DNA from: a virus
Lineage: Duplodnaviria; Heunggongvirae; Uroviricota; Caudoviricetes
Strand: one strand, 5' to 3'
DNA: 41,845 nt
Virus record (IMG/VR): IMGVR_UViG_3300039314_000292
The notes under the pieces: model-generated
What the model was told of the DNA's origin: nothing
Databases searched by the model: none
Seen by the model: the letters and a program-made list of their open reading frames with translations, nothing else
Translations under genes and position numbers: made by a program
In this document: in pieces, positions 1-36,106 of the stretch
Layout: the number at the start of each line of letters is the position of its first letter
How positions within the stretch are numbered: the first letter of the stretch is position 1

Positions 1-516
1 ATGAAATTTAAAAAATGTCTTCTGCCCGTGGCAATGTTAGCGTCATTCACTCTGGCAGGATGCCAGTCAAATGCTGATGATCATGCCGCCGATGTTTATC
101 AAACCGATCAACTGAATACCAAACAAGAAACTAAAACCGTTAATATTATTTCCATTCTTCCCGCAAAAGTTGCCGTAGACAACGCCCAAAATAAACGGAA
201 CGCACAAGCCTTCGGCGCGCTTATTGGCGCTGTCGCTGGCGGTGTTATCGGCCACAACGTCGGGTCTGGCAGCAATTCCGGAACGACGGCAGGTGCAGTT
301 GGCGGCGGAGCTGTAGGCGCGGCAGCGGGTTCTATGGTGAATGATAAAACCTTAGTGGAAGGTGTTTCTTTAACATATAAGGAAGGCACCAAAGTGTATA
401 CCTCCACCCAGGTGGGTAAAGAGTGCCAGTTTACGACAGGTTTAGCCGTTGTTATTACCACGACGTATAACGAAACGCGTATTCAGCCAAATACCAAATG
501 TCCTGAAAAGAGCTAA
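1..516 (+). CDS. SlyB/Pcp-like glycine-zipper outer-membrane lipoprotein (171 aa)
   Basis: ATG at 1; signal peptide with lipobox LAGC; Gly/Ala-rich glycine-zipper stretch GALIGAVAGGVIGHNVG...AVGGGAVGAAAGS; overall layout resembles SlyB (memory). Could be host gene or phage moron. Confidence 0.7.
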   Translation: MKFKKCLLPVAMLASFTLAGCQSNADDHAADVYQTDQLNTKQETKTVNIISILPAKVAVDNAQNKRNAQAFGALIGAVAGGVIGHNVGSGSNSGTTAGAVGGGAVGAAAGSMVNDKTLVEGVSLTYKEGTKVYTSTQVGKECQFTTGLAVVITTTYNETRIQPNTKCPEKS

Positions 517-531
517 TAATCAGGAGGAGTC

Positions 532-1071
532 ATGAAGAAAGTTTTTCTTTGCGCCATCTTAGCCTCCTTAAGCTATCCGGCTATCGCCTCATCATTGCAG
601 GATCAACTCTCGGCTGTCGCAGAAGCGGAACAGCAAGGTAAAAATGAAGAGCAAAGGCAGCATGACGAATGGGTCGCGGAGCGCAACAGGGAAATCCAGC
701 AAGAGAAGCAACGTCGCGCAAACGCCCAGGCCGCGGCTAATAAAAGAGCGGCAACGGCAGCAGCGAATAAGAAAGCTCGTCAGGATAAACTGGACGCCGA
801 AGCCACTGCGGACAAAAAACGCGATCAAAGTTATGAAGATGAGCTACGTAGCTTAGAGATTCAGAAACAAAAACTGGCGCTGGCGAAAGAAGAAGCCCGC
901 GTTAAGCGCGAAAACGAATTTATCGATCAGGAACTGAAGCACAAAGCTGCGCAAACCGATGTGGTGCAATCTGAAGCTGACGCAAACAGAAATATGACTG
1001 AAGGCGGTCGCGATCTGATGAAAAGCGTGGGTAAAGCAGAAGAGAATAAATCAGATAGCTGGTTTAACTAA
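532..1071 (+). CDS. secreted charged coiled-coil protein (179 aa), function unknown
   Basis: AGGAGG RBS about 7 nt upstream of ATG 532; N-terminal signal peptide MKKVFLCAILASLSYPAIA; remainder K/E/Q/A/R-rich helical; followed by intrinsic terminator. Confidence 0.65.
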   Translation: MKKVFLCAILASLSYPAIASSLQDQLSAVAEAEQQGKNEEQRQHDEWVAERNREIQQEKQRRANAQAAANKRAATAAANKKARQDKLDAEATADKKRDQSYEDELRSLEIQKQKLALAKEEARVKRENEFIDQELKHKAAQTDVVQSEADANRNMTEGGRDLMKSVGKAEENKSDSWFN

Positions 1072-3386: not shown

Positions 3387-6300
3387 TTAACGTTCTTCCA
3401 GAGACTGAATCCGCTCTTTTATCTTATCCATTTCTCTGCGCTGCCATGCTGCCTCGATATAGAATAAGAGATCAGGTCTGACCCCCCATCTAGATCCTGC
3501 TGGCGTTATTTCAACGCGCTCAATGATGTCTTCCATTACCATCACTGGATTATCATCCTCATCAACAATAATGCTCCCGTCATTATCAGTCAGCGGCATT
3601 TCCCTTTGGCCAGTAATGACGTCATCATATACTGCGGGATAATCGTCATAGCAAAGAAACGCATAGCGGCATGTTGTGCTTTCTTCTTCCATGAGTCCGT
3701 GAGAAATAAGAACATCACGAAGTTGCTGCGCGATTACACCATGATGTATCCTCGCCCCTTCTTCCCCCTTTATAGCGACAGCGTTCAGCCATTTATAAGC
3801 GATATACCTGACGTCACCCCAGGCATCCAGCAATGCTTCGTCAGGAGAGACCGGCTCTGTCTTTAATGTTCCGTCACTGGTAACCACAGGATTGGAGCCA
3901 AGATAAACTGTCGAGAACCTGTTTCCCGGACCACCAAGAGCATTTACATTATCAAGATAAGGTTTAACATCTCCGTTCTCAAAAAGATGTTCGAGTGCGT
4001 TATATACCGCGCGACGTGGAGTACTGCTTCCGGAACCATGCAACGTTATCATTGCACCATCTGCTGAAGACGTTGTTTCACCGCCGCTAACGATTAATCT
4101 CTGAGCGGTAACATCATCAGACGGTACTTTCTTCGCAATAATGGCGTAATTACCCTCAAGTTTGACTTCCGCGCGAACTTGTCCTGATGTACCTGCATGG
4201 ACAGTCAGTGACTGGACGGCAACATCATCTGTGAAATCAACGGGTACAGGAACCGTCCTCACGCCTGACGTCGACATAAAAGTAGGAAGCGTTCTGTTAG
4301 GAGTGGCTCCGTAGACAAAATCCCTTGAAACAAATTCTTCCTGTTTAATTTTCACCCTGAAACAATACAAATCAGCCGGGTGACCATCGTGAACATAAGG
4401 ATATTTTCTGTTGTTATCCCCTATGCTCCATGGGTTTAGAAAGTCTTCCCCACCGAAAATGTAGTACAGCCAGTTGTCTTTGATACAAACTGAACCAACA
4501 CCAACCGCAGAGTTAACTATTCCGCCCTGATAAATCTGATCAGTAACATTAACCCACTCTACATTATCCAGACTCCACTCATTGACGTTAACTCTGGTCA
4601 TAAATGTTCTTGGATAATTTCCTGCATAACGGTTATCAGGTTCTCCTCCTTCCCACTCACCAAATGCGCGCTCACTGCCAAAAATAATCAGCTCATCGCC
4701 AACTTTGGCAAAAGGAAGGTTTGAGTGATGAACATTATTTGGGAAGCGAAGAGAATTCCATGATGTACCTAAATCAGAGCTTCTGTGCAATGAACTACCG
4801 GGTTGAGTACTTAATGTCCCCCTGGTCGTCAGATACAGAATGCCATCATAATATTTTACACATGGCTCAGATGCATTCGCCTCATATTCTGCAGGTATGC
4901 GTCTGCGAACAAAGCTACCAGGAGAACCGAAAGCATCAGAGAAATAGAGTATCCCAAGCTCGCGTGGACCAATATCACCATTATGGTAGCCAACAGCAAA
5001 ACTGTTATCGCTAATCGTCGCAAAACTGTGAATCTCAGTAACAGGAGTGCTTCCGTCAACAAAAGAAGGAATAGTTCCAAGACTGGTTTTTCTCCATGGT
5101 GACGAGTGAAATGATGTACCAAAACTCCAGTATCTACCCTCGTTATTCTGATCCACATCCTGGGTATTTTGCGTCGTAACTGTAAAAGTATTTTTATCAA
5201 TAACAGTAGTCACCGTCATATTCCCGGTAACACCTGTAACACCAGAGTTTGAGAAGTTGACAAAATCACCAGCAAATAATCCGTGATCAGTAATGCGAAT
5301 ATAAGCGACTTGCTGATTTGCTGCTTTCGTTATACCACCATAAACGCGAAGGCTGCGACTCATTGGGCGATCCCACAACTCTGCAACCTGCAGTTTATTT
5401 CCGCTCACGGTCCGCGTCTCAATTACAGCAAAAAGGCGATTTCTGACAACCCCCATACTCATGCAGTGATAGTTAACTGTGGGATAGTTTTCATGTAAAT
5501 CTGTAAGCCATTCCGGCGTTGTCCAGGTCTTCCCGTCATCTCCTGAGCGAACCCATGCAACATGGAGGTTATTTACACCATGGCGGTCTCCAGCCATAAA
5601 AGGCGCATAGATGACATTGTCATATACAAACGTTTTATCCTGCGTCCAGGCGTTGTACCACGGTGTATCTGTAATTTTAAATAACTCTCCCTGGATAAAA
5701 TCTTCAGAAGCATAAAAAAGAGGCTGGCCCGGTATTCTCTCAAATAAAAAACGAGCATTTTTAAATCGACTGACATCCGGAAGAGTTGATACTTTAAAAG
5801 TAAGCCCTAATCCGTCAATTCTATAACCTGGAGATGAGGCTTCAAGGCACGCGCTTATTGCAGTGGAATCGTCATTTATACCATCACCAACAGCTCCAAA
5901 ATCTTTGGGGCTAATAGCATCACGCATTTTATCCTGGAACGTTCGGTACACAGCCCCAGAACCATACTGAATAAACCAACCAAAACCACCAACAACCCCG
6001 GCGATTGCAGCATCGACATAATTACGCATTGAGCGATTATTTACAGCGTCCTGCTCAAATGATGGATCTGCAAGGTTAGAAATTTTGTTTTGCTTTGCAT
6101 CGTAATATTTTGCAAGCAAAGATGGTTTCATCAATGCACGTCTGAACCACCCAAAACATTGCTGGATCAGCATCGTCAGGTAGTCAAAGGCATCTTCATG
6201 CACTTCGGGGAAAAATTTTCCCTGATTGCGAAGGTCTGTCTCCTGCACTACATCAAGCACACGATCTATCGTAATTCGCCATCCAGTAGCAAGCGGAGAC

Positions 6301-6506
6301 GGAAGAACCACAGAACCGCCACTATAAGTGCCCGCCCCAGTTACCGTATAACCGGTATCCAGAACCAATTCTGTTACGTTTCCGTTCAGGTCAGACACCT
6401 GAACAACCAGGTCTGATTTTCTGAAAATTCGAAAAGTATACGGAAACGATGTCGTAACGCCGTTACCGGTGTATTCGTTGTGGTCAACTTCGGTTGAGAC
6501 CGTCAT
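3387..6506 (-). CDS. tailspike / receptor-binding depolymerase with C-terminal intramolecular chaperone domain (1039 aa)
   Basis: N-terminal NEYTGNGVTTSFPYTF segment typical of podovirus spike N-termini; DFGAVGDGINDDSTAI beta-helix (pectate-lyase-3-like) signature; Asp-box motifs SGDDGKTW and SSDLGTSW; C-terminal about 160 aa with SDGTLKT motif resembling self-cleaving chaperone (peptidase S74-like) domains. Confidence 0.9.
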   Translation of the reverse strand: MTVSTEVDHNEYTGNGVTTSFPYTFRIFRKSDLVVQVSDLNGNVTELVLDTGYTVTGAGTYSGGSVVLPSPLATGWRITIDRVLDVVQETDLRNQGKFFPEVHEDAFDYLTMLIQQCFGWFRRALMKPSLLAKYYDAKQNKISNLADPSFEQDAVNNRSMRNYVDAAIAGVVGGFGWFIQYGSGAVYRTFQDKMRDAISPKDFGAVGDGINDDSTAISACLEASSPGYRIDGLGLTFKVSTLPDVSRFKNARFLFERIPGQPLFYASEDFIQGELFKITDTPWYNAWTQDKTFVYDNVIYAPFMAGDRHGVNNLHVAWVRSGDDGKTWTTPEWLTDLHENYPTVNYHCMSMGVVRNRLFAVIETRTVSGNKLQVAELWDRPMSRSLRVYGGITKAANQQVAYIRITDHGLFAGDFVNFSNSGVTGVTGNMTVTTVIDKNTFTVTTQNTQDVDQNNEGRYWSFGTSFHSSPWRKTSLGTIPSFVDGSTPVTEIHSFATISDNSFAVGYHNGDIGPRELGILYFSDAFGSPGSFVRRRIPAEYEANASEPCVKYYDGILYLTTRGTLSTQPGSSLHRSSDLGTSWNSLRFPNNVHHSNLPFAKVGDELIIFGSERAFGEWEGGEPDNRYAGNYPRTFMTRVNVNEWSLDNVEWVNVTDQIYQGGIVNSAVGVGSVCIKDNWLYYIFGGEDFLNPWSIGDNNRKYPYVHDGHPADLYCFRVKIKQEEFVSRDFVYGATPNRTLPTFMSTSGVRTVPVPVDFTDDVAVQSLTVHAGTSGQVRAEVKLEGNYAIIAKKVPSDDVTAQRLIVSGGETTSSADGAMITLHGSGSSTPRRAVYNALEHLFENGDVKPYLDNVNALGGPGNRFSTVYLGSNPVVTSDGTLKTEPVSPDEALLDAWGDVRYIAYKWLNAVAIKGEEGARIHHGVIAQQLRDVLISHGLMEEESTTCRYAFLCYDDYPAVYDDVITGQREMPLTDNDGSIIVDEDDNPVMVMEDIIERVEITPAGSRWGVRPDLLFYIEAAWQRREMDKIKERIQSLEER

Positions 6507-6610: not shown

Positions 6611-6625
6611 TTACCTTTCAGGTGA
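6611..6625. promoter_or_regulatory. operator-like site TTACC-N5-GGTGA (near-perfect copy of the repeated palindrome)
   Basis: TTACCTTTCAGGTGA about 40 bp upstream of the LexA box; 4/5 match in second half-site. Confidence 0.45.
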
Positions 6626-6662: not shown

Positions 6663-6682
6663 TACTGTATAAATATACAGTT
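6663..6682. promoter_or_regulatory. LexA (SOS) box
   Basis: TACTGTATAAATATACAGTT: CTGT-N8-ACAG with AT-rich spacer, matches E. coli LexA consensus TACTGT(AT)4ACAGTA; 21 bp upstream of ATG 6702. Confidence 0.7.
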
Positions 6683-6701
6683 ATTGCATGGAGAAGATAA
6701 G

Positions 6702-6959
6702 ATGCAGCAGTATCACTATCCACTGGAAGACGGATTTACCGAAAGGATTCACACGCCGGGAGGCGTCAGGTCACTGGTGGAGGGATCGCACTTGATGAAA
6801 TTACTCCGGGATCTCGATAAGGATGGATTTAATGTCGATGGCCCACTTGCCGAACTGACTGCACTGATTAACTACGTCACCAGCTCACAGATGTCTATGC
6901 GGGATCTGCAAACACATCTCGACTATTGTGCCGAACAATTACGAAAACAAACCAGATAA
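6702..6959 (+). CDS. small SOS-controlled protein (85 aa), paralog of the antirepressor C-terminal domain; candidate antirepressor
   Basis: ATG 6702 with GGAGAA RBS, favoured over upstream ATG 6579; product aligns to C-terminus of 7275..7985 (LMKLL/LMNLL, DGFNVDG/DGHDVSG, AELT, RDLQTH/RDIQTH). Confidence 0.55.
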   Translation: MQQYHYPLEDGFTERIHTPGGVRSLVEGSHLMKLLRDLDKDGFNVDGPLAELTALINYVTSSQMSMRDLQTHLDYCAEQLRKQTR

Positions 6960-6988
6960 GATTTGAAATTACCAATAGGAGTGCTTAT

Positions 6989-7007
6989 ATTTACCTTTGC
7001 GGTAAAT
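6989..7007. promoter_or_regulatory. operator-like 19-bp perfect palindrome ATTTACC-N5-GGTAAAT
   Basis: ATTTACCTTTGCGGTAAAT; perfect 7-bp inverted half-sites; between small SOS gene and antirepressor gene. Confidence 0.6.
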
Positions 7008-7096
7008 TTACATCGCACTCCTCTTGTGCCATAGTAATCGGGCACTGGCAAAATCCAGTGCCGGGATTGGCGTCCCGGGTTACTAAGTGGCGCATA

Positions 7097-7118
7097 CCAC
7101 GCCAGACGTGGTTTTTTT
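7097..7118 (+). terminator. putative intrinsic terminator preceded by two strong hairpins
   Basis: CCACG-CCAGA-CGTGG followed by TTTTTTT; upstream hairpins GGCACTGG-CAAAAT-CCAGTGCC (7041..7062) and CCGGGA-TTGGCG-TCCCGG. Confidence 0.5.
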
Positions 7119-7274
7119 ATGCGTTAAGCACAGCTATATCCGAATTATGGTGGGCTGGGCAGGGGTCCGAAAGGACGCCGGTACCACTTAGGCCGGTACG
7201 CCAACCTTGTCCAGTTCACCACCAGTAATTGGCGTTGCGGTGGTGATTAAAATCACTAAGTGGAGATAACCACC

Positions 7275-7985
7275 ATGGCTAATGCTCAAACTGCCATCTT
7301 CAAATTTGAATCTGTTAACCCTATCCGTTCCATCATTATCGATGGCCGACCATGGTTTGTAGCCCAAGACGTTTGTAGTGCGCTGCGTATCCAAAACGTC
7401 ACCCAAGCACTTGAAAAACTGGATGATGATGAAAGGTCTATGTTCAACATAGGGCATGAACATCGTGCAATTTTTGACAGCCGAGTAAAAGAGATCAACA
7501 TTATCTCCGAGTCAGGCCTCTACACACTGATCCTCCGCTGCCGCGACGCAGTGACACCAGGCACTATCCCCTACCGCTTTCGTAAATGGGTTACAGGTGA
7601 GGTTCTTCCTCAGATCCGCCGCACCGGAAGTTACATTAAAAACTCGCTCCCGCAGGAAGAACGCATAAAGATGGTTGCCGACCAGGTAGCCAACGCCACG
7701 GCGTCAGCAGTAATGCAGGCGATGAAGATAGAGAACAAAACCTACAGTGCCCCGCTGAAGCCCGGCTACCGCAGTCTGATTCATTCCCCATCTGGTGTTC
7801 TCGGCCTGACGGAGCACTCACTGCTGATGAATCTGCTGAACCAGTTACAGGAAGACGGGCACGACGTATCGGGCGCGGCGGCGGAGCTGACCACCATGTT
7901 CTGCTACATCGTCGGTGTAAGCAAATGCCTGCGTGATATCCAGACGCACGCGGAGTACATCAACGACAAGGCTGGGTTCTTCTGA
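7275..7985 (+). CDS. Bro-N domain antirepressor-like protein (236 aa)
   Basis: ATG 7275 with GGAG RBS; N-terminal Bro-N signature (FKFESVNPIRSIIIDGRPWFVAQDVCSALRIQN...); C-terminal domain paralogous to 6702..6959. Confidence 0.8.
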   Translation: MANAQTAIFKFESVNPIRSIIIDGRPWFVAQDVCSALRIQNVTQALEKLDDDERSMFNIGHEHRAIFDSRVKEINIISESGLYTLILRCRDAVTPGTIPYRFRKWVTGEVLPQIRRTGSYIKNSLPQEERIKMVADQVANATASAVMQAMKIENKTYSAPLKPGYRSLIHSPSGVLGLTEHSLLMNLLNQLQEDGHDVSGAAAELTTMFCYIVGVSKCLRDIQTHAEYINDKAGFF

Positions 7986-8051: not shown

Positions 8052-8066
8052 TTACCTTAAAGGTAA
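8052..8066. promoter_or_regulatory. operator-like perfect site TTACC-N5-GGTAA
   Basis: ATTACCTTAAAGGTAAACC immediately upstream of the 8093 operon start region. Confidence 0.55.
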
Positions 8067-8092
8067 ACCATGGGTTTACATGAGGAGGAGAT

Positions 8093-8302
8093 ATGGGATT
8101 TTGGTTCGCTCGTACAAAAACGAGGGATAATGCACCCAGCCCTCAGGCAAAAAATGCAGAAGTTCCGGCGTCAGCGCAGGTTAACAAGCGTGGTGGAGTA
8201 TATATCTCATCACAGCAAATTTCTGAGCTTCCTGAGGTTAAGGAGATGCGTCGTCTCGCTGCTGCAATTGTTAAACAGGATCTTGCCACTGTAAGGAAAT
8301 AG
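8093..8302 (+). CDS. small hydrophilic protein (69 aa), first gene of accessory operon
   Basis: ATG 8093 preceded by GAGGAGGAG; stop overlaps the GTG start of the next gene; chosen over overlapping alternate-frame ORF 8070..8294. Confidence 0.45.
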   Translation: MGFWFARTKTRDNAPSPQAKNAEVPASAQVNKRGGVYISSQQISELPEVKEMRRLAAAIVKQDLATVRK

Positions 8303-9168
8303 TGTTGTTAGCTCTTCTAATTATCCCCATTCTGGTTAGTGGTTATATTATGATAACCGCTAACCAGTATCATTATTTCCGTTTATACCGACATGAAGGC
8401 CAGCTTCTTTATATGAAAGTAGCTGCATTAGGTACATATTGCCTTGTTGCATCAGTAATAATTGCAGCCGCTATAAAATATAAATGGCCTGATTTTCACC
8501 TAGTTCACGATATGGTGGAAACTTTTAATGTAACATCAAAACCAGAAACAGATAGAATTTACATGTGGCTGCTTCTTCTCTCAGCCACATCCATTTGCTT
8601 CTCTTTGTGTTATGTGTCTGTTGTGTGGGTGAAAGATTTTCTTCTTGGTTGTTTTTATAAACGTGATATTTACGAGCAAAAAACAGAGGCAATGAAGGCC
8701 AGAGTACTGCGAAAAACTTACTCGCAAGGTTCTTTAGACTTACTATTGCTTGATGCTATTGAATCGGATCCTAAACGACCAATGTTGATTACTTTATCAT
8801 CAAACAAAGTGTATGTTGGAATAATAAATGGTTCTGGTGAACCAACGGAAAATCAGGGTCCGCATCAGCACATATCTTTTGTTCCTTTAATGTCAGGATA
8901 CAGGAACAAAGAAAACTTATCTGTCACATTCACTAATGCTTATCCAGGAGAAATACAGGTCAAGCGGACTGCAGCAATAAGAGGAATTAGCAGAAAGAAA
9001 GTGCCAGGACTTGAGATCATGGTGTCTATTGACGAAATAAGTTATATATCATGGTTTGATTTTGAAGTATATAAAGCAACAAATAACAAAGTAGAATCCA
9101 GGGGGCACGTTATTCGTGTTACCAAAAATGGAAGAAATATATATCAAAGAAATAGCAAAAAAGAATAG
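8302..9168 (+). CDS. low-GC inner-membrane protein (288 aa): 3 N-terminal TM helices plus about 170-aa soluble domain; candidate superinfection-exclusion/defence protein
   Basis: GTG 8302 with AAGGA RBS; markedly AT-rich versus flanking phage genes; TM segments LLALLIIPILVSGYIMI, VAALGTYCLVASVIIAAAI, IYMWLLLLSATSICFSLCYVSVVWV; terminator follows. Confidence 0.7.
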   Translation: MLLALLIIPILVSGYIMITANQYHYFRLYRHEGQLLYMKVAALGTYCLVASVIIAAAIKYKWPDFHLVHDMVETFNVTSKPETDRIYMWLLLLSATSICFSLCYVSVVWVKDFLLGCFYKRDIYEQKTEAMKARVLRKTYSQGSLDLLLLDAIESDPKRPMLITLSSNKVYVGIINGSGEPTENQGPHQHISFVPLMSGYRNKENLSVTFTNAYPGEIQVKRTAAIRGISRKKVPGLEIMVSIDEISYISWFDFEVYKATNNKVESRGHVIRVTKNGRNIYQRNSKKE

Positions 9169-9190
9169 CCCGCGCTGCGGGCTTTTTTGT
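9168..9190 (+). terminator. rho-independent terminator
   Basis: GCCCGC-GCT-GCGGGC followed by TTTTTT directly after stop of 8302..9168. Confidence 0.7.
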
Positions 9191-9260
9191 GGACGAAACA
9201 AAAGCCAGTGCTACACTCATTGACGCCACATTGAGGTGGCTTATAGATGGAAATTTCACA

Positions 9261-9422
9261 ATGAAAAAAGCATTTGCTGCACTGTTCGTTTTGTTGTCTC
9301 TGGTAGCTTCAACTCAGGCCTTTGCCGGTCGTTGTCAGCACGACAGCGATACCGCCGCTGACGGCTCCCGCTGCGGTGGGCGTTCTGCGGATTCCCGCCC
9401 GGGCGGCGGTGGCATTCGTTAA
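9261..9422 (+). CDS. small secreted Cys-containing peptide (53 aa), hypothetical moron
   Basis: Own sigma70-like promoter TTGACG(9220..9225)-N16-TATAGA(9242..9247); signal peptide MKKAFAALFVLLSLVASTQAFA; very short leader, no clear RBS, so low confidence. Confidence 0.35.
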   Translation: MKKAFAALFVLLSLVASTQAFAGRCQHDSDTAADGSRCGGRSADSRPGGGGIR

Positions 9423-9428
9423 AAACAA

Positions 9429-9444
9429 GGCCGCGAAAGCGGCC
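9429..9444 (-). terminator. rho-independent terminator for the minus-strand 186-aa gene
   Basis: GGCCGC-GAAA-GCGGCC with T-run on the minus strand (A-run on plus); adjacent to palindrome TGTGACATGTCACA (9445..9458). Confidence 0.6.
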
Positions 9445-9458
9445 TGTGACATGTCACA

Positions 9459-10019
9459 CTACATTGATATATGATTCATAAAGTAGCTTAAAGATTTACT
9501 TCCCAGAAAAGAAATTTCTTTTCCTGGATATGTCGCAATAATTGAGCATGACTTATCCCCGTTAGAGGTAACAAATCCTGAATAACCTACTTGTTCTTTA
9601 CCATTTTGTTGCTTGGCTAAAAAGTAGAGGTAGCTTATCTTTTTGCCCTCTGGGTAAAACTCTGCCAAACCAGTATCGGTGATTGAATATTTTATTCTCC
9701 CGCCTTGAGTAACGTTTTCCATCTCAAGTTTAGCTATGTCTTTTCTGTTGTATTCAGCATTGATTTTCCTTTCGAAATCAATGTTGTTTTCAAATGAGTA
9801 GGAAGCAACAGTCTGAATAGATGGGAACACGTTTATCTGGATGCCTCCACAGTCGGCACAGGTATAAAGGTATGAATCAGATGGAATCCCCATAAAAGAA
9901 AACTGAGTTACCTTAAATTTATCGCTATCTCCAAAGTATTGAAGTTCGCATTTAACATTTTGCCCTGCAAAAGAAAATGCAGACATCAATATTGAAACAA
10001 AAAATATAATTGCCTTCAT
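9459..10019 (-). CDS. low-GC secreted protein (186 aa), moron appended to virion-protein operon
   Basis: Signal peptide MKAIIFFVSILMSAFSFAG; AT-rich; starts 2 nt after stop of the 850-aa virion protein gene; own terminator. Confidence 0.7.
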   Translation of the reverse strand: MKAIIFFVSILMSAFSFAGQNVKCELQYFGDSDKFKVTQFSFMGIPSDSYLYTCADCGGIQINVFPSIQTVASYSFENNIDFERKINAEYNRKDIAKLEMENVTQGGRIKYSITDTGLAEFYPEGKKISYLYFLAKQQNGKEQVGYSGFVTSNGDKSCSIIATYPGKEISFLGSKSLSYFMNHISM

Positions 10020-26504: not shown

Positions 26505-26581
26505 GTGGCATTAGCTCAGTTGGACAGAGCAACCGCCTTCTAAGCGGTTGGTCGCAGGTTCGAATACTGCATGCCACGCCA
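26505..26581 (+). tRNA. tRNA-Arg (anticodon UCU), phage-encoded
   Basis: Cloverleaf readable by eye: 7-bp acceptor GTGGCAT/ATGCCAC, D-stem GCTC/GAGC, anticodon stem ACCGC/GCGGT with loop CTTCTAA, T-loop TTCGAAT, 3' GCCA; one T-stem mismatch (G53-A61). Resembles argU (memory). Confidence 0.85.
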
Positions 26582-35776: not shown

Positions 35777-36007
35777 TCATGAGTAGAAGAAGTATGCCAG
35801 TTCTGCTTTTGAGCGCAGCCATTGTCTTGTTTTACAGGCTTTAAAAAGCCCATTCATCAATACTTTACCTGGCATTTTGCGCTTACCTGTTAAGTGAGTC
35901 TGGATATAGTGACTCGTCGTTCCGGCTTCCTGTGCGAAGGCTTCACGCTCATCCGGAGTAAGTGCAAGCCAGTGCTTTTTGAAATCGAAATGTCCGTTAT
36001 CGCTCAT
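35777..36007 (-). CDS. Cro-like small DNA-binding regulator (76 aa)
   Basis: Divergent from repressor gene across a three-operator region; first gene of the minus-strand early operon. Confidence 0.6.
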   Translation of the reverse strand: MSDNGHFDFKKHWLALTPDEREAFAQEAGTTSHYIQTHLTGKRKMPGKVLMNGLFKACKTRQWLRSKAELAYFFYS

Positions 36008-36043: not shown

Positions 36044-36106
36044 TCACCCATAAGGTAACAAAAATCAAGGATAGTTACCTATGAGGTGCATTTACCTGTT
36101 GGGTAA
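36044..36106. promoter_or_regulatory. OR-like operator cluster: three TTACC-N5-GGTAA-type sites (36044..36058, 36075..36089, 36092..36106)
   Basis: TCACCCATAAGGTAA, TTACCTATGAGGTGC, TTACCTGTTGGGTAA between divergent cro-like and cI-like genes. Confidence 0.65.

Follow-up and report, generated by a model that had tools for sequence, protein, structure and literature searches.

The stretch of DNA analysed here, referred to as the window, is a 41,845-nucleotide sequence from a virus of the class Caudoviricetes (IMG/VR record IMGVR_UViG_3300039314_000292), and the locus under study occupies positions 6,663 to 7,985. On comparison with related phages, the locus is identified as the anti-immunity region of an epsilon15-like (Uetakevirus) prophage. 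It probably comprises two branches of antirepressor control that converge on a single repressor, Rep, which does not cleave itself. In one branch, the SOS response would lead to the synthesis of a small antirepressor of 85 amino acids (small Ant). In the other, a C4-type antisense RNA would gate the synthesis of a large antirepressor of 236 amino acids (large Ant), a protein with an N-terminal Bro-N domain and an Ant-type C-terminal domain. The coordinates of the genes, RNAs, targets and palindromes are collected in Table 1.

A LexA box (TACTGTATAAATATACAGTT) is present at 6663..6682 on the plus strand, with two mismatches to the 20-mer consensus TACTGTATATATATACAGTA. No other site in the window came within three mismatches, and 100 dinucleotide-preserving shuffles yielded no such site at all. 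A previous reading of the DNA, made from the sequence alone (the sequence-only reading), had placed a near-consensus LexA box 21 bp upstream of an 85-amino-acid open reading frame; the box was borne out, while the distance from the box to the ATG at 6702 was found to be 19 nt. A GGAG Shine-Dalgarno sequence is present at 6690..6693. Phages phiV10, TL-2011b, Tyrion and SPC32H carried the box in the same position ahead of their orthologous genes, and Klebsiella and other relatives carried an ATGT-N8-ACAG variant. In SPC32H, the ant gene is preceded by TACTGTATGTTTATACAGTG at the aligned box position. Two further CTGT-N8-ACAG sites in the window (22155 and 26697) had GC-rich spacers and were as numerous as chance predicts, and were discarded as LexA boxes on these grounds.

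The related phages SPC32N and SPC32H showed two base differences in a 5.2-kb stretch, one of which was a C-to-A substitution in the CAG half-site of the LexA box (CAG to AAG). A single change in the LexA site reportedly renders Ant constitutive. The possibility that the box is a chance palindrome, with the small open reading frame either constitutive or unexpressed, was considered extremely improbable. While the lack of a sigma-70 consensus at the box in a promoter scan would fit with it, the outcome of the shuffles, the conservation of the position across genera and the SPC32N substitution inside the equivalent box all argue against it.

The small Ant matched chain E of PDB entry 5D50, named 'Anti-repressor protein', with an E-value of 1.4e-46, and was approximately 87% identical to the annotated ant product of Salmonella phage SPC32H. 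A word-indexed protein search returned mostly stand-alone orthologs of approximately 85-86 amino acids, with some N-terminally extended or partial gene calls, and zero Pfam-domain entries. Residues 2-75 of the small Ant aligned with residues 155-228 of the Bro-N protein encoded by the adjacent gene (43% identity, E = 4e-16), and PHROG 450 matched both the small Ant (7e-48) and the Bro-N protein (8e-36). These matches agree with the proposal of the sequence-only reading that the 85-amino-acid product is a stand-alone paralog of the C-terminal domain of its Bro-N neighbour.

The putative partner, Rep, matched chain A of 5D50 ('Repressor') with an E-value of 4e-42, aligned over residues 1-190, and was 42% identical to SPC32H Rep over the full length. 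Pfam analysis identified an HTH_3 (helix-turn-helix) domain at residues 106-147 and a weak helix-turn-helix-like match at residues 21-61, and returned no match to Peptidase_S24, as expected from the earlier description of a repressor with two helix-turn-helix domains and no S24 motifs. Relative to SPC32H, the small Ant was thus conserved at 87% and its partner Rep at 42%. Either the part of Rep that Ant contacts is conserved, or Ants are cross-reactive among heteroimmune Uetakeviruses.

SPC32H is an epsilon15-like Salmonella phage with a published induction system (Kim & Ryu 2013; Kim et al. 2016; PDB 5D50 and 5D4Z). In addition to the orthologous small Ant and a two-domain Rep without an S24 peptidase, which has diverged far more than Ant, it shares with the window the LexA box at the same place upstream of ant, the same TTACC-N5-GGTAA motif, and the same gene order, in which a minus-strand tailspike gene is followed by a divergent plus-strand ant gene and adjoins virion-protein genes. 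On every feature that can be tested by sequence, the locus therefore appears to belong to the SPC32H Ant-Rep family. The two differ downstream of ant, where SPC32H has just a terminator and is without IsrK, C4 and the large antirepressor. According to PMC7380047, an antirepressor of the SPC32H type is synthesised once LexA has cleaved itself, and inhibition of the repressor occurs through direct contact between the two proteins. In PMC9638917, SPC32H Ant is described as a tetramer that binds two Rep dimers and breaks the DNA-binding Rep tetramer.

By analogy with this system, LexA on the box at 6663..6682 would hold the 85-amino-acid Ant off. DNA damage would remove LexA, and the Ant then made would bind Rep and dismantle the Rep tetramer, leading to derepression of the lytic promoters. 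This first branch is supported by close homology to a system that has been both solved and tested. The sequence-only reading had predicted prophage induction via a LexA-repressed antirepressor acting on an uncleaved repressor; this prediction appears to be right because the locus is orthologous to the published SPC32H system. Tum of phage 186 and GfoA and GftA of the Gifsy prophages are likewise small LexA-controlled antirepressors that act on uncleaved repressors (PMC3121763). No sequence relation of the small Ant of the window to Tum or GfoA was detected.

The second branch was identified through structured RNAs, which Rfam analysis revealed in the 315-nt spacer (6960..7274) between the two antirepressor genes. 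The spacer contains an IsrK-like RNA with an intrinsic terminator, an overlapping c4-a1b1 motif and a C4-type antisense RNA, followed by the leader of the large ant gene. The sequence-only reading overlooked that the Bro-N gene would form a separate cassette under IsrK/C4 antisense-RNA control. The loop b' of C4 is perfectly complementary to the targets b1 and b2 (8 bp), and the single-stranded a' to the targets a1 and a2 (7 bp). The sequence CTAAGTGG is present just twice in the whole window, both times as a b target.

The pairing was compared across 11 loci, comprising the window, phiV10, TL-2011b, ZX5, Tyrion, two Klebsiella phages and four metagenomic or genomic contigs. At every locus, the a' element forms 7-8 bp with each of its targets (a1 and a2), and the b' element 7-10 bp with each of b1 and b2. 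Four a-types (ACGCCAA, AGACCAA, GUCUCAA and GUGCAAA) and three b-types (CCACUUAG, CCUUUUAG and CCUUUGUAG) were observed, in seven combinations. All three partners (the C4 element and both of its targets) covary, and cross-type a pairing falls to 3-5 bp. The triple covariation of a' and b' with both target sets argues for selection on C4-target pairing, as in phages P1 and P7, and at the level of sequence it shows the pairing itself. An RNAduplex cross-matrix of C4 against the leaders and IsrK gave no discrimination, with the stem sequences dominating the energies, and was replaced by an explicit search for loop-to-target complementarity.

The cassette resembles the immI region (c4 - icd - ant) of P1 and P7, where the C4 elements a'/b' base-pair with sites (a2/b2) located at the regulated operon's ribosome-binding site and a second pair, a1/b1, is present upstream of c4. 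As at the loci compared here, the specificity types of P1 versus P7 are set by a few bases. In P1 and P7, RNase P releases the C4 RNA from a longer precursor, and C4 prevents lysogens from making the antirepressor; in P1, an operator for the phage repressor is also present at the operon promoter. Pairing of c4 RNA with sites upstream of the antirepressor gene in P1/P7 (Citron & Schuster 1990) is cited in a passage of PMC7313666, which also places isrK and c4 beside a Bro-N gene in APSE phages. The cassette also differs from that of P1/P7. The direct target there is the icd open reading frame coupled to ant, whereas b2 in the window covers the Shine-Dalgarno sequence of the antirepressor gene itself, and no icd-like coupled open reading frame was found at the locus. 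In addition, the regulated protein in P1 is Ant1/2 and the repressor is C1, whereas the window has a Bro-N/Ant-domain fusion and an SPC32H-type Rep. The RNA and its targets would thus belong to the C4/immI family, with the icd-type coupled open reading frame missing from the likeness.

The order of elements is also that of the Gifsy-1 isrK - orf45 (STnc1160) - anrP region, which comprises an IsrK RNA with its terminator, a processed read-through RNA in the C4 position and an antirepressor gene, the product of which induces the prophage (PMC4825925). In Gifsy-1, IsrK RNA activates translation through the coupled orf45 (PMC4825925). The cassette of the window could follow this logic rather than that of P1, such that the leader is intrinsically inactive in translation, the short IsrK-like RNA is a trans activator and the C4-like RNA is a minor processing product. 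We consider this a genuine, though not the favoured, possibility, and it is compatible with the two-branch scheme. Consistent with it, the isrK match in Rfam spans the entire model, terminator included, and structure prediction places the Shine-Dalgarno sequence and the AUG within a hairpin of the leader (7227..7288), where both would be sequestered. Furthermore, IsrK supplied in trans raised anrP translation more than 100-fold in Gifsy-1, where STnc1160 is a processed read-through product (PMC4825925). However, orf45 must be translated, and coupled to anrP, for activation to occur in Gifsy-1. The corresponding frame is closed after 14 codons in the window and ends 83 nt upstream of the large ant ATG; among the 11 loci it has 3-35 codons and usually ends more than 80 nt upstream. 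The triple covariation also speaks for pairing of the P1 type. Given that there is no icd-like open reading frame and that the orf45 frame is closed, the conserved object would be the RNA, and its direct target the ribosome-binding site of the antirepressor gene itself. A further difference from Gifsy-1 is that the cassette of the window sits directly after a LexA-controlled antirepressor gene.

Within the leader, the conserved GGUGGUGA directly after a2 (within 7242..7274) can pair with ACCACC immediately before the AUG, forming the hairpin that hides the Shine-Dalgarno sequence and start codon. The same sequence can alternatively pair with UCACCACC at the 3' end of C4 (7215..7223). These two options suggest that the read-through transcript could adopt alternative structures before it is processed, as has been described in Gifsy-1.

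The large Ant carries a Bro-N domain (PF02498) at residues 17-112 (Pfam E = 3.4e-19) and matched PHROG 130, 'anti-repressor Ant' (2e-56). Its C-terminal domain matched 5D50 chain E with an E-value of 2e-13. A profile of the small Ants together with the C-terminal domain of the large Ant, searched against 1.84 billion representative proteins, recovered just 60 representatives. This exhaustive profile search was needed, beyond the word-indexed one, to recover the fused forms. The domain was present either in stand-alone proteins of approximately 85-95 amino acids or at the C-terminus of proteins with Bro-N, AntA, Phage_pRha or ORF6N N-termini. Four of the fused proteins were looked up, and each adjoined a tailspike-like gene and a small Ant of 85-89 amino acids, the latter with its own LexA-like box and upstream palindrome. 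An isrK and a C4 precede every large Ant examined, regardless of the N-terminal domain or the orientation, including where the large gene is on the strand opposite to the small one. By these comparisons, the pair of small and large genes appears to be conserved, with an interchangeable N-terminal domain and the Ant-type domain as the constant part.

The small Ants and the fused C-terminal domains fall into distinct clades, both of them old, which are 36-44% identical across and 53-99% and 60-99% identical within, and alignment identified invariant residues common to both. The large-Ant cassette is absent from SPC32H, and all 12 of the 12 Salmonella-phage records with a small Ant, including epsilon15, showed one Ant-like place only. 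A recent origin of the mini-gene by duplication of the C-terminal domain of the Bro-N protein was ruled out, as the clades are approximately 40% identical and diverge in parallel across genera; the occurrence of the small Ant alone in all of these Salmonella-phage records also counters it.

The E. coli Uetakevirus vB_EcoP_ZX5 (Li et al. 2022) has the same IsrK/C4 cassette and a small Ant upstream of its ORF4. The ORF4 protein is 81% identical overall to the Bro-N protein of the window and essentially identical from residue 78 on. When ORF4 was overexpressed, the titre of the prophage fell from 1e9 to 1e6, and transcription of rep dropped by 75% (PMC9782041). In that study, ORF4 was treated as the only antirepressor, and neither LexA nor SPC32H was mentioned (PMC9782041). 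From the ZX5 overexpression and the domain homology, we infer that the large Ant has antirepressor activity, and Rep is its probable target.

Under an alternative that we consider unlikely, the resident Rep is not the target of the Bro-N protein, and the Ant-like C-terminal domain of this protein is instead an oligomerisation module, or targets the repressors of heteroimmune prophages, with the real activity, such as DNA binding, residing in Bro-N. The age and separation of the two clades mean that their specificities could differ, SPC32H Ant is a tetramer (PMC9638917), which gives its fold an oligomerisation role, and antirepressors acting in trans have been documented in Gifsy prophages (PMC3121763). 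Additionally, the ZX5 experiment was a crude overexpression during infection. Nevertheless, whereas four families alternate at the N-terminus, the C-terminal domain stays the same, which argues for common selection on the C-terminal part, and the two clades share their invariant residues. The large gene was also always found beside a small Ant in Uetakevirus-type contexts, and ORF4 overexpression lowered both lysogeny and rep transcription of its own phage. Action of the large Ant on the resident Rep is therefore preferred.

A palindrome, TTACC-N5-GGTAA, is present in 11 exact copies in the window, against 0.13 expected, and in 14 copies with at most one mismatch. It clusters between rep and the cro-like gene and downstream of rep, and is dispersed over the whole prophage, beyond the rep-cro region; both features were also observed in SPC32H. 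The palindrome is presumably an operator of Rep (or Cro), and its scatter suggests that Rep may control many promoters directly. In P1, the C1 operators are similarly dispersed. A degenerate TTACCTATGAGGTGC was read by eye between the sites at 36044 and 36092. The position of the palindrome at 6611..6625 was kept upstream of the small ant gene in the window, six phage relatives and four more loci, that is, at every locus examined, and Rep presumably binds there.

The exact palindrome at 6991..7005 had invariant half-sites and a variable 5-nt spacer in six loci. Two promoter-like sites flank it. An arrangement similar to the first, TTGnnn-17-TAnnnT, was present in most of the six aligned loci (alignment read by eye), and the -10 region of the second, TGTGCCATAGT, was invariant in the six loci. 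The operator is centred approximately 44 nt ahead of the second start, a geometry with which Rep could shut off the first promoter while leaving the second unaffected or even favouring it.

In the proposed second branch, a promoter beside the putative Rep-operator palindrome would give rise to an IsrK-like RNA with a1/b1 and a terminator, and read-through past this terminator would produce the C4-type antisense RNA. The a' and b' elements of C4 would then pair with a2 and b2 and cover the ribosome-binding site of the Bro-N/Ant-domain gene, so that a lysogen holding C4 would not translate the large Ant. The large Ant would be made when C4 is absent, mismatched or titrated, as in fresh infection, heteroimmune superinfection or an excess of the IsrK-like decoy RNA. 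Its Ant-type C-terminal domain would most likely bind the same Rep, and inactivate it.

The two branches may also be linked. The terminator scan identified no plus-strand terminator between 6959 and 7096, and SOS-driven ant transcripts should consequently carry the a1/b1 decoy at their 3' end, which, speculatively, could unlock the second branch. A two-input lysis switch may be envisaged, in which one Rep-binding domain is deployed twice under two sensors. The stand-alone Ant would report DNA damage through LexA, and the fused Ant (Bro-N/AntA/Rha/ORF6N) would report lost or mismatched C4 RNA immunity, with the decoy on the ant transcript sponging C4 in a feed-forward loop. This extended model is tentative, and we lean towards doubting it. 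The direct ant-to-IsrK layout is not conserved: inserts are present in TL-2011b and the Klebsiella phages, and the genes are on opposite strands in two of the loci (L012 and L014). The decoy idea is weakened accordingly, and the decoy step cannot be essential.

This variable layout is also one of several points that weigh against the two-branch scheme as a whole. The promoter scan did not find a promoter for ant. Rep is just 42% identical to SPC32H Rep, so that the Ant-Rep binding proposed here is extrapolated. The large Ant gene of phiV10 (L002 3071..3750) is split by a frameshift inside the Ant-type domain, which indicates that the second branch is dispensable. As Ant is a tetramer, the C-terminal domain of the large Ant could serve oligomerisation only. 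Finally, the Gifsy-type orf45 is unconserved, and the sign and logic of the RNA control could differ from those proposed. Despite these points, convergence of the two branches on one Rep was retained as the probable reading.

The sequence-only reading had presented the locus as an induction module of a new kind, unlike anything described, with a mini-antirepressor that derives from its Bro-N neighbour and stands alone. As a whole, this is very unlikely. The paralogy is real, no description of a stand-alone Ant paired with such a fused paralog was found in the literature searched, and the ZX5 paper calls the Bro-N protein the sole antirepressor and is silent on LexA and SPC32H. However, the small Ant, Rep and LexA box are those of the published SPC32H system (87% and 42% identity), the small Ant occurs without the Bro-N cassette in 12 of 12 Salmonella-phage records, including SPC32H and epsilon15, and the RNA-gated cassette is of the known P1/Gifsy-1/APSE type. 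The locus was also matched in 534 of 5426 complete E. coli genomes. The core mechanism is evidently a rediscovery, and the SPC32H-type route of SOS induction is, judging by these matches, widespread in E. coli prophages. What was not found described in the literature searched is the domain shared by the two antirepressors, their placement side by side and the swappable N-terminal domain; Kim & Ryu may have noted fused homologs.

The joining of a LexA-controlled and a small-RNA-controlled antirepressor has a precedent in phage N15. Passages in PMC4488713 and PMC3121763 describe the immA antirepressor AntA under a small processed RNA and a separate, LexA-controlled AntC. As in the window, one phage thus carries both an SOS-controlled and a small-RNA-controlled antirepressor, and gp30, encoded in the immA-region operon of N15, shares 43% identity with the N-terminal portion of the Bro-N protein of the window. 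In N15, the two genes are at separate loci, whereas those of the window are adjacent and share the Ant-type domain.

The region showed 92-98% identity to the Escherichia phages HEMP4, vB_EcoP_ZX5, phiV10 and TL-2011b. The genus Uetakevirus (epsilon15-like podophages) is the classification of phiV10, ZX5 and SPC32H. By these comparisons, the phage of the window is an epsilon15-like (Uetakevirus) prophage and not a P22-like one. The position of the module had previously been likened to immI of P22 (mnt-arc-ant, sar RNA). The likeness extends to the placement of an antirepressor module next to the tailspike gene, and not to relatedness: no Mnt, Arc or P22-type Ant was identified in Pfam and PHROG scans of the module open reading frames, and the nearest phages are Uetakeviruses. 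A P22-like immI was ruled out on this basis.

Table 1. Features of the anti-immunity locus and related elements of the window (positions are those of the window).
Feature	Position	Strand	Details
Small antirepressor gene ant, 85 amino acids	6702..6959	+	Ortholog of SPC32H Ant; PHROG 450
Large antirepressor, 236 amino acids	7275..7985	+	Bro-N domain and Ant-type C-terminal domain (~residues 153-234)
Rep, prophage repressor, 194 amino acids	36162..36746	+	5D50_A match; helix-turn-helix only, no S24 autocleavage domain
c4-a1b1 motif	7029..7081	+	Rfam 44.1 bits, just below gathering threshold of 46.7
IsrK-like RNA	7042..7118	+	Rfam RF01394 isrK, 67.7 bits (gathering 50); full-length match including terminator
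a1 target	7067..7073	+	UUGGCGU, within IsrK hairpin loop
b1 target	7083..7090	+	CUAAGUGG
Intrinsic terminator of IsrK-like RNA	7096..7118	+	Terminator scan
C4-type antisense RNA	7143..7226	+	Rfam RF01695, 66 bits (gathering 45); full-length match; fold predicted
C4 loop b'	7184..7191	+	CCACUUAG
C4 single-stranded a'	7198..7204	+	ACGCCAA
Leader of large ant gene	7229..7265	+	a2, b2 and Shine-Dalgarno sequence
a2 target	7229..7235	+	UUGGCGU
b2 target	7256..7263	+	CUAAGUGG; overlaps GGAG Shine-Dalgarno sequence 7262..7265 of Bro-N gene
Operator-like palindrome TTACCTTTCAGGTGA	6611..6625	.	1 mismatch; ~40 bp upstream of LexA box
Promoter-like site TTGAAA-17-TATATT	6963..6991	+	10/12 consensus matches; -10 runs into palindrome; consensus match alone
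Exact operator-like palindrome TTACCTTTGCGGTAA	6991..7005	.	Between the two promoter-like sites
Promoter-like site TTTACA-17-CATAGT, TG-extended	7007..7035	+	Predicted start near 7042, the 5' end of the IsrK model
Candidate operator cluster	36044..36106	.	Between cro-like gene 35777..36007 (-) and rep: 36044 (1 mismatch), 36092 (exact)
Palindrome sites (15 bp), start positions	6611, 6991, 8052, 26168, 26786, 29719, 29737, 33743, 33805, 36044, 36092, 36804, 36866
Cargo open reading frame, 69 amino acids	8093..8302		Block 8052..10019
Cargo open reading frame, 288 amino acids	8302..9168		N-terminus hydrophobic by eye; PHROG 3630
Cargo open reading frame, 77 amino acids	9189..9422		PHROG 'membrane associated protein'
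Cargo open reading frame, 186 amino acids	9459..10019	-	Hydrophobic, signal-peptide-like N-terminus judged by eye

The late genes of the phage are on the minus strand, and the module is located between the tailspike gene (3387..6506, minus strand) and the large virion-protein genes (from 10022, minus strand). The tailspike has 1039 amino acids and is a complete endosialidase, in which End_N_terminal, beta-propeller, beta-barrel and End_tail_spike domains are combined with a Peptidase_S74 chaperone. It is borne on an epsilon15-like backbone and would be specific for the K1 polysialic-acid capsule. A cargo block (8052..10019) is present between the large ant gene and the virion genes and is preceded by an exact operator-like palindrome at 8052..8066. 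No Pfam matches were found for the three cargo open reading frames scanned (69, 288 and 186 amino acids), and NCBIfam and PADLOC returned no matches for any of the four. Interpretation of the open reading frames at 8093..10019 as a defence system was dropped, as PADLOC gave no matches. The block is at the position of sieA in P22, and a role in superinfection exclusion is a guess.

A tRNA-Arg (anticodon TCT) is encoded in the phage at 26505..26581 on the plus strand, and SPC32H has a tRNA-Arg at the equivalent place. Positions 1..1071 of the window are a host-side flank, with a gene for a glycine-zipper lipoprotein-like protein of 171 amino acids and a DUF5384 gene of 179 amino acids beside the lysis cassette. 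The same flank recurs in an unrelated contig (L010, 3414..4484), which suggests a shared integration site.

Several annotations may be corrected in light of these results. The small Ant is labelled 'hypothetical protein' in the ZX5 record, the C4 region of ZX5 (L016 2157..2270) is annotated as an 'ash family protein' coding sequence, and some large-Ant gene calls overrun the RNAs, such as that of L011 (10001..10960), which runs across isrK and C4.

The small SPC32H Ant would be the free-standing form of the domain that ends large 'antirepressors' with Bro-N, AntA, Rha or ORF6N N-termini, and the shared domain ties a mechanism known at the level of crystal structure to a large class of poorly understood phage proteins. 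The studies in Salmonella took the small Ant to be the antirepressor, and the E. coli ZX5 study the Bro-N protein. As many phages carry both antirepressors under separate control, knocking out one gene alone could give misleading results. From the four a-types and three b-types of C4, a combinatorial immunity code is predicted among co-resident Uetakevirus prophages. If the two-input switch were true, a mechanism would for the first time be assigned to the variable C-terminal domains of 'antirepressors' of the Bro-N, AntA and Rha type, namely that of repressor-specific binding modules.

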